Shown here in pieces: positions 16,432 through 61,206 of a stretch of 64,000 bases of DNA (position 1 is the stretch's first letter; each line of letters opens with the position of its first letter). Origin of the DNA: an uncultured Methanosarcinales archaeon. GTDB lineage: Archaea > Nanobdellota > Nanobdellia > Woesearchaeales > JACPIF01. The notes below the pieces were generated by a model that saw only the letters and a list, made by a program, of their open reading frames with translations, did no database searches and was not told the origin of the DNA. A program made the position numbers and the translations under genes. The stretch spans positions 88,246 to 152,245 of the forward strand of contig CAZRPY010000001.1 of the NCBI GenBank assembly GCA_964602245.1, written 5' to 3'.

Positions 16432-16458
16432 TATAGTCCCTTTGTTCTAATTATTTCT

Positions 16459-16666
16459 AAAACCATTTATCTTAGATAAATGGAATTTTGTTCTGTCAAA
16501 AACCACCCATCAGAAATGGGTGGCATGATTGTATCACTATTACATTCAGGTGGTTTTTGATGCTCAAAATTCTACGTGTTATGGGTAGTTTTTGAACACA
16601 CAAAATTCCATCTGCATTTATTGCTAACATCCAAAACCACTTATCCTAGGTAAGTGGAATTTTGTT
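16459..16666. repeat. cluster of short hairpin repeats with conserved flanks (AAAACCA-stem-loop-TGGAATTTTGTT)
   Basis: Units at 16459-16492, 16498-16523 and 16633-16666. Stems differ but each is self-complementary. Inverted partial copies (ggtggttttt at 16549, caaaattcca at 16601). Confidence 0.55.
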
Positions 16667-16668
16667 GT

Positions 16669-17730
16669 TTAAAACTCTTTTAATACTTCGTCAACTGTCT
16701 TAATAACTGTATCTGGTTTTAAAGTTTCCATACACCATATATTTTCAGTACACTCGCTCTTAAAAAAGCATTTGCATTCCTGTTTTGGCTGTATTAGTTT
16801 ACCTAGGCCATACAGCTCAAACTCATGCTTATTAAATATATTATTGTACACTACTATTTTCTTCTCAAGTGCTATAGCAATATGCATTGCCATAGTAACA
16901 GCTGTAATTACTAACGTGCACTGATCCACAATATTTACAAAATCATGAAATGGATGACAGCCAAAGTAATAGGCATGAGTTTTTTTTGACATTTCTTTAT
17001 TTCTAATATCTTCTAATTCACCGCCTAGAAATACTACATCATAGCCTTTTGCCATTAATTTATTAGCTAGTTCTATCCAATACTTGTCAGGCCACATCCT
17101 AGTCTTCCATCTTGGATTACAGCCTGTATTAAGACCAATTACTATTTTTTTGAATTTTGGAAATTTTAATTTAGTAGGTTGCTTCTGTAGCATGTAACGC
17201 TGCATCTCATATTTGAAACCGCAAAGCTCAAATATTTCTTCATAATAACTTTTTGTATTCTCTCTATTATAATCGTCGTCAACACCAGAGAAGAATTTAT
17301 GTTCCGCATTCTTGTTTATTGGCTCACATCTTCCATTTAATAATTTATAGCCATGTTTTTCATCTGCCTTTACCATGTTGATTATTGCGCATGCTTCTCT
17401 GTCTTTATCTAAATTATATATTATATCAAACTTATCTGCCTGCAAATAGGCTAGATTTCCTGCGTTAAGTTCAAGAGGTACTTCTACTATTCCTTTTATT
17501 ATTTCTGGAAAGTATGTTACCCATGTAATTTCACAATTAGGATAAACTTCCTTCAGTTTTCTAATTAAAGGGGTTGTTCTAATTACATCGCCCATTGCAC
17601 CTAATTTAACAATAAGAATTCTCCTACCTCTTTTAATGTAGTGCTCACACTGACATTTTGAGCCTTCTTTCTTGTGCCAGATACATGGCCTATCGCCTAA
17701 AAAATATAAACAGTCCTTGCTTAGATACAT
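16669..17730 (-). CDS. glycosyltransferase family 9 with Cys-rich N- and C-terminal extensions
   Basis: VKLGAMGDVIRTTPLIRKL GT9 motif; N-terminal C-x8-C-x9-CxC plus His; C-terminal CKC...C...WC. Confidence 0.7.
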   Translation of the reverse strand: MYLSKDCLYFLGDRPCIWHKKEGSKCQCEHYIKRGRRILIVKLGAMGDVIRTTPLIRKLKEVYPNCEITWVTYFPEIIKGIVEVPLELNAGNLAYLQADKFDIIYNLDKDREACAIINMVKADEKHGYKLLNGRCEPINKNAEHKFFSGVDDDYNRENTKSYYEEIFELCGFKYEMQRYMLQKQPTKLKFPKFKKIVIGLNTGCNPRWKTRMWPDKYWIELANKLMAKGYDVVFLGGELEDIRNKEMSKKTHAYYFGCHPFHDFVNIVDQCTLVITAVTMAMHIAIALEKKIVVYNNIFNKHEFELYGLGKLIQPKQECKCFFKSECTENIWCMETLKPDTVIKTVDEVLKEF

Positions 17731-44721: not shown

Positions 44722-44841
44722 TCGTGGACGGTCATAGTGGCATGGTTCCACCTGATCCCATTCCGAACTCAGAAGTTAAACATGCCAACGTCTTGGATTG
44801 TACTGTACTTTAGTACGGGAAGTCCAAGAAGCTGTCCCACT
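44722..44841 (+). rRNA. 5S ribosomal RNA (archaeal type)
   Basis: ggtcatagtggc...ccgaactcagaagttaaac...ggattgtactgtactttagtacgggaag aligns to archaeal 5S. The terminal helix GUGGACGG pairs with CUGUCCCAC. Followed by T-runs. Confidence 0.85.
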
Positions 44842-44941
44842 TTATATTATAATAGATTAGATTTTTCTTTGTTTTTTGATTCTATTTGCACTCTTCGGCA
44901 TATTGCTATACCTAGAGTCCGCTTCTCATATATTTTAATGT

Positions 44942-45026
44942 GCACTAGCGGACCAATGGCATAGCCTCGTGTTCGAGGCTCGTAATGCTAATTATTATTC
45001 TTTCAATACTTTTTGCTTAATGCAAA
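44942..45026 (+). repeat. conserved structured element, copy A (gcact..gcggacc, hairpin gcatagcctcg-loop-cgaggctcgtaatgc, T-rich tract, ttgcttaatgcaa)
   Basis: Near-identical to 60431..60524 over about 90 nt in the same orientation; extended 11-bp bulged hairpin. Confidence 0.6.
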
Positions 45027-45050
45027 TTCGATTTCTATAAATACTATCTT

Positions 45051-59689: not shown

Positions 59690-60289
59690 TTATTCATCTG
59701 AGAAATCTTCTAGCTTAAGATTAATCTCCTCATTTTCTTTAATTAAGCCTCTTTTCTTCATATACTCATTAGCAAGTATCCAGAACAATACCCCTAGGCT
59801 TTTCTTACCTTTATTATTACAAGGCACAACTAAATCGATATTATTTGACTGATTATTAGTATGGCATAGGGCTATAACAGGAATCCCTATCTTTAAGGCG
59901 TCATTAACTGCGTTTCTATCAGGCCAAGCATCTGTAACTAGAATAATTTTAGGCTCAAAATATGTTTCAAGCTTGGGATTTGTTAGAATGCCTGGAGGGT
60001 ATCTTCCTGCAAATACTCTAGAGCCTGTAACCTTGCCAAAGGCTTTAACTGGTTTCCAACCATTTTCTCTCCTGCTAACAATGAGAATTTCTTCTGGCTT
60101 ATAGTTTGCCAGTAGGTTTGCTGCCTGCTTAATTCTTTCATCTATCTTTTGCAAGTTAAGAACTGACAAGCCATCTGGTCTAGTCTTGTAAATAAACTGT
60201 TCCATATGCCTAGTCTTGAATTTAGTGCCAATATAGATTCCCGATTTTAAGTAGATATCCTGTGGAACTAGTAATGCTTCTTCTGCCAT
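59690..60289 (-). CDS. rps2: 30S ribosomal protein uS2 (archaeal type)
   Basis: MAEEALLVPQDIYLKSGIYIGTK...PDRNAVNDALKIGIPVIALCHTNN. Confidence 0.9.
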   Translation of the reverse strand: MAEEALLVPQDIYLKSGIYIGTKFKTRHMEQFIYKTRPDGLSVLNLQKIDERIKQAANLLANYKPEEILIVSRRENGWKPVKAFGKVTGSRVFAGRYPPGILTNPKLETYFEPKIILVTDAWPDRNAVNDALKIGIPVIALCHTNNQSNNIDLVVPCNNKGKKSLGVLFWILANEYMKKRGLIKENEEINLKLEDFSDE

Positions 60290-60430
60290 TTTAGCCTTAT
60301 ATTTTTAATTTGTACTTTTTTATTGTAATTCTTTTATTTTTTAAATTGTATTTTTGTTTATTTTTTATTTACTTAATTTGCAATACGGTTACGAACTACG
60401 CAACATACCTGTCAGCTAGTACACTTTACA

Positions 60431-60524
60431 GCACTGATAAGCGGACCTAGTGCATAGCCTCGTATTTCGAGGCTCGTTAATGCTAATTATTATTTTATTA
60501 ATATTTTTTATTTGCTTAATGCAA
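60431..60524 (+). repeat. conserved structured element, copy B (paralog of 44942..45026)
   Basis: gcactgataagcggacctagtgcatagcctcgtatttcgaggctcgttaatgctaattattatttt...ttgcttaatgcaa; the same hairpin stems with different loop and bulge. Confidence 0.6.
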
Positions 60525-60669
60525 GTTACTATTAATTATTTTAAATAGTACTTTCTGCCATTTTTATTGCCTTATGCAGTTATCGCAAGCACTATAGCCA
60601 GTACTTGCTTTTGGCATTATAATAATGGAAAGAAGATGGAATTTATAAAGGTTGTGGGGTTTTGTATGC

Positions 60670-61206
60670 TTAAGGTTCTAATTTGAATATTTCTAGGTCC
60701 TCATATAAGGCACCCTGTCTAGTAAGAGTGCTTTTCATGAGCCTGAAGTCTTTAACATTCGCTTCTAAGTTTTTAATTTTAAGCTTAGAAACATTTTGAA
60801 CAAATTCTTCTTTGTTTTTCAAGAATTTTACTCTAGCTAGAGTTATATGAGGCTTAAACTTCTTTTCTTTAGGGGAATATTCTAACATAGATTGGTCTAT
60901 TAATGATTGAAGTTCTAATGCGTCATTTTCTGGATTAATTCCTAGCCACACAACTCTTATCATCTTATTGCTAGGGAAAAAGCCTATTCTATCAAGGCTA
61001 AAGGTAAAGCTTTTAAATTTTATAGCAGAAAGCTTCTCCTTTACTTTTTCTAATAACTCATTCTCAATATAGCCTAAGAATTTTAGAGTTAAATGATAGT
61101 CTTTTACTAAAGAAATACCTTTGAGGTCTTTTATGAACTCTTTTTGCAGTTCTGCTAGATAAGATTTAATTTGCTCAGGAAGAGCTACTGCTATGAAAGT
61201 CCTCAT
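60670..61206 (-). CDS. RNA 2',3'-cyclic phosphodiesterase / 2'-5' RNA ligase (LigT/ThpR)
   Basis: Two H-x-T/S-x motifs (HLTLKFLG and HITLARVK); 178 aa. Confidence 0.8.
   Translation of the reverse strand: MRTFIAVALPEQIKSYLAELQKEFIKDLKGISLVKDYHLTLKFLGYIENELLEKVKEKLSAIKFKSFTFSLDRIGFFPSNKMIRVVWLGINPENDALELQSLIDQSMLEYSPKEKKFKPHITLARVKFLKNKEEFVQNVSKLKIKNLEANVKDFRLMKSTLTRQGALYEDLEIFKLEP

Follow-up and report, generated by a model that had tools for sequence, protein, structure and literature searches.

We found that a structured non-coding unit of about 150 nt occurs at unrelated intergenic sites in two related DPANN archaea, and that it probably represents either a small RNA gene or a small mobile element. 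Its three members define a real and previously uncatalogued family of structured non-coding units in Woesearchaeota, for which conservation of sequence and length, a non-syntenic distribution and an absence of coding potential are established. Two of the members, copies A and B, lie in the 64,000-nt stretch of DNA analyzed here (the window). With rather less than even confidence, we read copy B as a member of a ~150-nt structured family of low-GC Woesearchaeota and as an orphan small RNA gene on the plus strand of the window. Ranked a close second is a MITE-like mobile DNA element, and both could hold if the mobile unit were itself a transcribed RNA gene.

The window has a GC content of 33% and encodes RadA, an NFACT protein, a TRAM protein, LigT and an archaeal-type S2 (Pfam), with a sugar-nucleotide and glycosyltransferase region making up its bulk. 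The nearest homologues of its S2, LigT and NFACT proteins carry the name Candidatus Woesearchaeota. The 5S rRNA gene gave the sole Rfam match in the window at gathering threshold. ARAGORN detected no tRNA in the window, with introns permitted as well, and no transposase or integrase domain was found among the window ORFs scanned. The source-genome sequence examined amounted to 64 kb plus 7.5 kb. Other repeats were also seen in the window. A 45-nt direct repeat (82% identity, 174 nt apart) and a 31-nt inverted repeat (84% complementary) share an intergenic region between epimerase and glycosyltransferase genes (16456-16674), and a 104-nt direct repeat (777-880 and 1757-1860, 81% identity, 980 nt apart) lies near a methyltransferase gene and a hypothetical gene.

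The first-pass annotation had reported A and B as a two-copy repeat in the same orientation, about 15.5 kb apart, and this repeat was confirmed as real. Between 60440 and 60524, copy B reads AGCGGACC-N5-GCATAGCCTCG-TATTT-CGAGGCTCG-TTAA-TGCTAATTATTAT...TTGCTTAATGCAA, and its blocks recur on the same strand in copy A at 44947-45025, ~15,493 nt away. Common to both segments are AGCGGACC, GCATAGCCTCGT, TTCGAGGCTCG, TAATGCTAATTATTATT and TTTGCTTAATGCAA, and the motif TTGCTTAATGCAA is exact in A and B only. The upper stems of the second hairpin (AGCCTCG/CGAGGCT) are identical in A and B, as had been stated, and the reported differences also hold: the loop is TATTT in B and TGTT in A, and the 3' bulge is CGTTA in B and CGTA in A. 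In shuffles of the window, the hairpin pattern was expected 0.00 times. An nhmmer profile built from the A and B pair gave E=1e-25 and 1e-23, with no further match in the window. Thus, the repeat is not a product of chance.

The unit extends well beyond the segment first described. A start at 60431 had been proposed, which cuts through the loop of stem-loop 1; homology between A and B begins about 65 nt further 5', at ATTTGCA. Conservation had been put at about 90 nt including the shared motif TTGCTTAATGCAA. The motif stands, and the extent is corrected to 144-151 nt. The sequence upstream (60290-60430) had been described as AT-rich and free of ORFs. This description applies to 60290-60375, a featureless spacer whose tiny ORFs are not conserved between copies, and the rest belongs to the unit itself. 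The coordinates of all features are collected in Table 1.

Table 1. Features of the repeat unit and of its neighborhood (window coordinates unless a locus is named).
Feature	Position	Strand	Remarks
Copy B, full unit	60376-60526	+	151 nt; TA outside both ends; delimited by anchors, segment identities and heptamer regex
5' terminal heptamer ATTTGCA, copy B	60376-60382	+	Same in A at 44884; CTTTGCA in L005 at 2907
Variable region 1, copy B	60383-60410	+	Length 28 nt, against 26 nt in both A and C; 14-16 of 30-32 aligned columns identical in pairwise comparison
Stem-loop 1, copy B	60411-60446	+	GTCAGCT/AGCGGAC, one A.G mismatch, 22-nt loop
Stem-loop 2, copy B (hairpin of the first-pass annotation)	60452-60483	+	Lower stem GCAT/ATGC, upper stem AGCCTCG/CGAGGCT, loop TATTT, 3' bulge CGTTA
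Conserved tail TGCTAATTATTAT, copy B	60481-60493	+	13/13 identical to A; 12/13 identical to C
T6 run, copy B	60504-60509	+	T5 in A at 45010-45014, T4 in C; read from the sequence
Motif TTGCTTAATGCAA, copy B	60512-60526	+	Overlaps 3' terminal heptamer TGCAAGT (60520-60526)
Copy A, full unit	44884-45027	+	144 nt; flanks CT and TC
Copy C, full unit	L005:2907-3055		149 nt
5S rRNA gene, 5' of copy A	44724-44840	+	Rfam RF00001, 79.4 bits
Ribosomal protein S2 gene	59690-60289	-	Pfam PF00318; homologues named Woesearchaeota S2
LigT-like 2',3'-cyclic phosphodiesterase gene	60670-61206	-	Pfam PF02834
Conserved S2 promoter and leader pseudoknot	60555-60649	-	Promoter TTTATAAA at 60649-60642; outside the repeat
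S2 leader in relatives	L007:9880-9965; L012:4835-4915; L052:5880-5975; L055:5885-5945

All three copies share one architecture. Inverted terminal heptamers bound each unit, (A/C)TTTGCA at the 5' end and its inverse, TGCARRT, at the 3' end. The 5' heptamer is followed by a variable stretch of 26-28 nt that is unrelated in sequence among the three copies, and the distance from the heptamer to stem-loop 1 is constant. Stem-loop 1 consists of a 7-bp stem enclosing a 22-23 nt loop. A 5-nt linker then leads to the GC-rich hairpin GCATAGCCTCG-loop-CGAGGCTCG, invariant in all three copies, and this hairpin is followed by the tail TGCTAATTRTTAT, an AT-rich stretch with a T-run, and TGCARRT. The T-run is a possible archaeal terminator on the plus strand. 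No conserved ORF is present, and the small ORFs crossing A and B lie in different frames.

The distances between anchors are nearly fixed in the three copies (33/35/33, 30/29/29 and 12/12/12 nt), which argues for a folded molecule rather than drifting DNA. Between the blocks the sequence is saturated; the blocks themselves are identical or nearly so across three copies from two organisms. Outside the anchors, A and B differ from each other about as much as either differs from C. They are thus old copies held at the same constrained positions, and not a recent duplication.

Copy C was the one true homologue recovered by an exact-pattern scan of GTDB genomes (L005), the remaining hits being GC-rich chance matches. 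The corresponding scan of JGI metagenomes returned the copy C sequence again, in contig L016, and otherwise GC-rich chance matches only. The contig L005 (CAZBGH010000014.1, GC 33%) is labelled as a Methanosarcinales MAG and was probably mis-binned. It is 99.98% identical to the JGI contig, whose sample also holds a Woesearchaeal contig with a gene order conserved with the window. That sample, Ga0114945, also yields L032, whose NFACT protein is 77% identical to that of the window, so copy C most likely comes from a related Woesearchaeon. Covariance-model searches of ~400 kb of Woesearchaeal loci, reached through S2, LigT and NFACT homologues, found no further copies. Two pattern scans of viral contigs gave no true homologue as judged by the covariance model, blastn detected no similarity of the unit to phage or plasmid records, and a literature search gave nothing relevant. 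The covariance model also matched the minus strand at both loci, with 27 and 21 bits; these matches were set aside as mostly trivial self-symmetry of stem 1.

Both hairpins are predicted in all three copies. Stem 1 is GTCCGCT/AGCGGAC in A, GTCAGCT/AGCGGAC in B and GTCCGCC/GGCGGAC in C, where pairing is kept through a compensatory double change from U-A to C-G. Across 19 pairs, 96% of positions were paired and 1 pair changed on both sides, a count equalled by 167 of 500 shuffles; covariation support for the structure is weak. The stems of hairpin 2 are invariant, and its loop measures 4 or 5 nt. A hairpin tolerates such a change in loop length, whereas a double-stranded binding site for a dimer would not. 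Together, the conserved blocks, the fixed spacing, this tolerance and the one compensatory pair suggest that the constraint acts on a folded single-stranded nucleic acid. In the minimum free energy structures of B and C, the 5' heptamer region forms a closing helix with CG..TGCTAAT, which in A would cost 2.6 kcal/mol. The tail TGCTAATTATTAT can pair in this way with the 5' heptamer, as an alternative closing helix. A pseudoknot between variable region 1 and the loop of stem-loop 1 was considered by eye and rejected as inconsistent across copies.

The strand evidence is mixed. When whole units were folded on the plus strand, the terminal heptamers paired in all three copies, and the terminal helix of B and C contained one U.G wobble each that would be an A.C mismatch on the minus strand. 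The plus strand of the unit has several G.U pairs. The T5, T6 and T4 runs 3' of the core exist on the plus strand only, and copy C folds better on plus by 13 kcal/mol. Copy B folds better on the minus strand (-36.4 vs -31.4 kcal/mol), as does copy A slightly, and possible hairpins in the variable regions of A and B would use G.U pairs on minus and A.C on plus.

These minus-strand folds would suit a promoter-operator cassette with a structured 5' leader, acting as a cis-regulatory 5' UTR module and read toward the S2 gene at B and the thioredoxin-like gene at C. Such a cassette would comprise GAAAG-N4-TATTTAWA and then the near-palindrome TTGCATTAAGCAA. The similarity of A and B does run past the palindrome into the TATA-like TATTTAWA, with GAAAG before it; both B and C have a minus-strand gene downstream, and the minus strand is free of T-runs that would block read-through into the gene. 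The module is nevertheless unlikely. It fails at copy A, beyond which the minus strand offers only antisense 5S rRNA; S2 has its own conserved promoter and leader upstream of B; and in C, with its better plus-strand fold, neither the palindrome nor the TATA-like box is conserved.

Comparison with known classes returned no match. Rfam 15, searched at E up to 10 at both loci, gave best scores of 11-19 bits against thresholds of 40-60. ARAGORN found no tRNA, tRNA half or tRNA-like structure in the three units, introns permitted and with a lowered threshold, and the hairpin-2 loop, GUAUUUC or GUAGUUC, is unlike the T-loop UUCRANY. In the three aligned copies, neither a C box (RUGAUGA) nor a D box (CUGA) is conserved on either strand, and CUGAUAAG is present in B only. 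A search for H/ACA features found no ANA box 3' of either hairpin and no K-turn. No tandem G.A pairs come after the bulge CGU(U)A, and a pseudouridylation pocket with an upper stem would not fit into the 22-23 nt enclosed by stem 1. Complements of the variable regions were sought in the window as targets, and only two 13-mers were found, which is within chance. An IS200/IS605-derived PATE was rejected on the ground that the two hairpins have unrelated stems (GTCCGCT/AGCGGAC vs AGCCTCG/CGAGGCT). Also rejected on reading the sequences were a tRNA-like cloverleaf, group II domain V, a K-turn, a BHB motif, a hammerhead core, a DGR TR/VR pair, an integron attC and a replication-origin ORB.

Copy A begins directly after the terminator T-tract of the 5S rRNA gene, and this T-rich terminator is homologous between L031 and the window. 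In relatives, the 5S gene at the syntenic place beside an NTP-transferase gene has a trailer of 47-52 nt followed by a convergent gene, and the element is absent from the 5S trailers of L031, L032 and L034. The start of A right after the 5S T-tract, together with the position of B adjoining the structured S2 leader, could indicate a 3' trailer, terminator or processing module of stable RNA genes. We regard this as very improbable: the 5S genes of two relatives, with their short trailers, largely refute it, no plus-strand RNA gene lies 5' of B or C, and hairpin 2 sits ~30 nt from the T-run and hence is not terminator-like. The related proposal that copies always follow stable RNA or highly expressed genes did not survive either, since only A follows a 5S gene and C lies between a thioredoxin-like and a hypothetical gene. 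Separately, the related 5S genes at L031:11770-11918 and L032:8445-8593 (minus strand) carry a 32-nt insertion, TAAAGGCAAGCTGAGGCTTCCTTTATGAGATA, between CTCAGAA and GTTAAAC, which drops their Rfam score to 39.9 bits and could be an expansion segment or a mini-intron.

The S2 gene has a promoter and leader of its own, with the same architecture in the window and in L007, L012, L052 and L055. In these five genomes a common promoter, TT(T)ATAAA, is followed ~29 nt later by a stem that covaries between genomes (UGCC/GGCA, AUUGCCC/GGGCAAU and AUUACC/GGUAAU). The loop, CUGC(A), is complementary to (U)GCAG just 3' of the stem, which suggests a pseudoknot, and an upper hairpin with the loop UGRCUAnn is optional. 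The leader had no match in Rfam and is a candidate ribosomal-protein autoregulatory leader in Woesearchaeota. Copy B had been placed between the LigT gene and the S2 promoter, which is probably wrong, as B lies between the S2 leader and the S2 ORF.

From the leader to the S2 start codon, the distance is 40-80 nt in L007, L052 and L055 and ~265 nt in the window, where the gap is filled by copy B in antisense orientation. The element is absent from the S2 5' UTR of L007, L052 and L055. Because the syntenic 5S trailers and S2 leaders of relatives are empty, A and B are lineage-specific insertions, B being one within the S2 leader region. At the same position between leader and start codon, L012 carries another GC-rich insert of ~130 nt with pairing ends (L012:4925-5050), whose predicted fold on the S2 strand is a rod (-32.8 kcal/mol, z -2.3). 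Assemblies also tend to end here. In three short-read assemblies with 100% identity to the window, the sequence breaks off at 60650 or 60639, where the S2 promoter starts, and the contig of a relative with 96% S2 identity begins 43 nt before S2 (window ~60331); the loci with LigT-S2 intergenic breaks are L026, L027, L028 and L011. These breaks fit heterogeneity or low coverage near B and prove neither.

Two direct repeats in the same orientation, 15.5 kb apart, could in principle be att-like boundaries of an integrated element, an idea that the first-pass annotation had itself dismissed. Our results agree, and we reject it on synteny as extremely improbable. The interval contains genes for NFACT, GlmS, sugar-nucleotide and glycosyltransferase functions and S2, and it is collinear with L007 and L034, adjacent pieces of a relative's contig (JACPIF010000008.1) that lacks both copies. 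The ~15 kb between the copies is therefore conserved chromosome. Both A and B are full-length units, and the ORF scan revealed no integrase.

Insertion of the unit as DNA deserves more weight. A MITE-like non-autonomous mobile element would be a cassette of ~150 bp, bounded by short terminal inverted repeats, with TA in AT-rich intergenic DNA as its insertion site. Its hairpins would serve mobilization, for example through recognition as single-stranded DNA, or be passengers, and any RNA would be incidental. We judge this possible but doubtful. Inverted heptamers bound all three copies at 144-151 bp, and TA stands directly outside both ends of B and C, a possible target-site duplication (chance ~0.002-0.01, a rough estimate). 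Insertion sites differ between genomes, and the syntenic sites of relatives are empty in both the 5S trailer and the S2 5' UTR. The different insert with pairing ends at the same S2 UTR position in L012, and the breaks of four independent short-read assemblies in the intergenic region of B, also fit such an element. However, the inverted repeats are only 7 bp long, and A is flanked by CT/TC instead of TA. By chance alone, ~0.36 such heptamer pairs are expected per window, and two unrelated pairs are present in this one. Nor do the copies approach identity: they diverge mostly within two internal segments and keep the same internal hairpins in both species, a pattern that decaying MITEs do not usually show. 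The window ORFs scanned lack a transposase or integrase, and no phage or plasmid similarity was found.

The small RNA gene remains our first reading. The first-pass annotation had also conceived of a small RNA gene, made from the AT-rich stretch and ending in the hairpin. The gene itself is retained, while its proposed limits are not, as the unit begins at 60376 and its 3' end lies ~45 nt beyond the hairpin. We infer the transcription of this RNA and its strand. Its ends would be closed by the 5' heptamer AUUUGCA pairing with UGCUAAU or with the terminal UGCARRU. Inside, a variable arm of 26-28 nt would be followed by a long hairpin with a 7-bp conserved stem and a 22-23 nt interior, and then by the invariant GC-rich hairpin with its 3' bulge, the conserved AAUUAUUAU tail and the T-run. 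The invariant hairpin and tail would form a protein-binding platform, and the variable arm would provide specificity. At the B locus, this RNA would lie antisense to the S2 5' UTR.

The small RNA gene is favored by the conserved blocks, their spacing, the folding features and the plus-strand T-runs described above, and by the lack of a conserved ORF and of any match to a known RNA family or tRNA. Against it stand the weak covariation and the mixed strand evidence, and only three copies were found in the scanned GTDB, JGI and ~400 kb Woesearchaeal loci. The candidate TATA boxes are weak and lack the AACC-type BRE of the 5S and S2 promoters, and that of copy A overlaps the conserved 5S trailer. 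In addition, if the terminal heptamers pair in the RNA, the transcript must read through its own T-run. A broader version would make the ~150-nt cassette a mobile structured RNA gene of a previously undescribed DPANN class. An unlinked protein would be recruited by its invariant hairpin and tail, and nucleic-acid targets would be set by its variable segments of fixed length (26-28 nt and 22-23 nt), much as in a guide or bridge RNA that has parted from the gene for its enzyme. We think this version quite improbable.

Known systems resemble the unit in part. ERIC/IRU, Neisseria Correia elements and REPINs are bacterial MITE-like intergenic repeats that act as RNA structures. Like the unit, they are ~100-150 bp long and hairpin-forming, with inverted ends and, in some families, a TA insertion point; they occupy intergenic or UTR sites that differ between related genomes, and they are non-coding yet conserved across species. 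They differ in having tens to hundreds of near-identical copies, longer inverted repeats and one long imperfect palindrome, whereas the unit has 2 copies in 64 kb, 7-bp ends, two distinct hairpins, two saturated segments and an archaeal host. The Sulfolobus SM1-SM4 MITEs are likewise small non-coding archaeal intergenic insertions bounded by terminal inverted repeats, and they have short target duplications, to which the TA at B and C may correspond. In known archaeal MITEs, the terminal inverted repeats are long and shared with an identifiable parent IS; for the unit, no parent IS or transposase was found, and its internal conservation points to structural constraint. Orphan archaeal sRNAs and the C/D and H/ACA guides are also small, occur as multi-copy paralogues, relocate rapidly and combine a scaffold with fixed-length variable segments. 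The unit differs from those guides in having no conserved C/D box, K-turn, ACA after a hairpin or Rfam match.

To our knowledge, hardly anything has been described of the non-coding RNAs of the uncultivated DPANN archaea. Copy B marks a foreign insert inside a ribosomal-protein leader, and transcriptome and genome-wide work on the three-member orphan family can now build on a defined model and coordinates. A structured unit of 150 nt that is conserved yet relocates would rank among the first Woesearchaeota-specific RNA or mobile-element families described.
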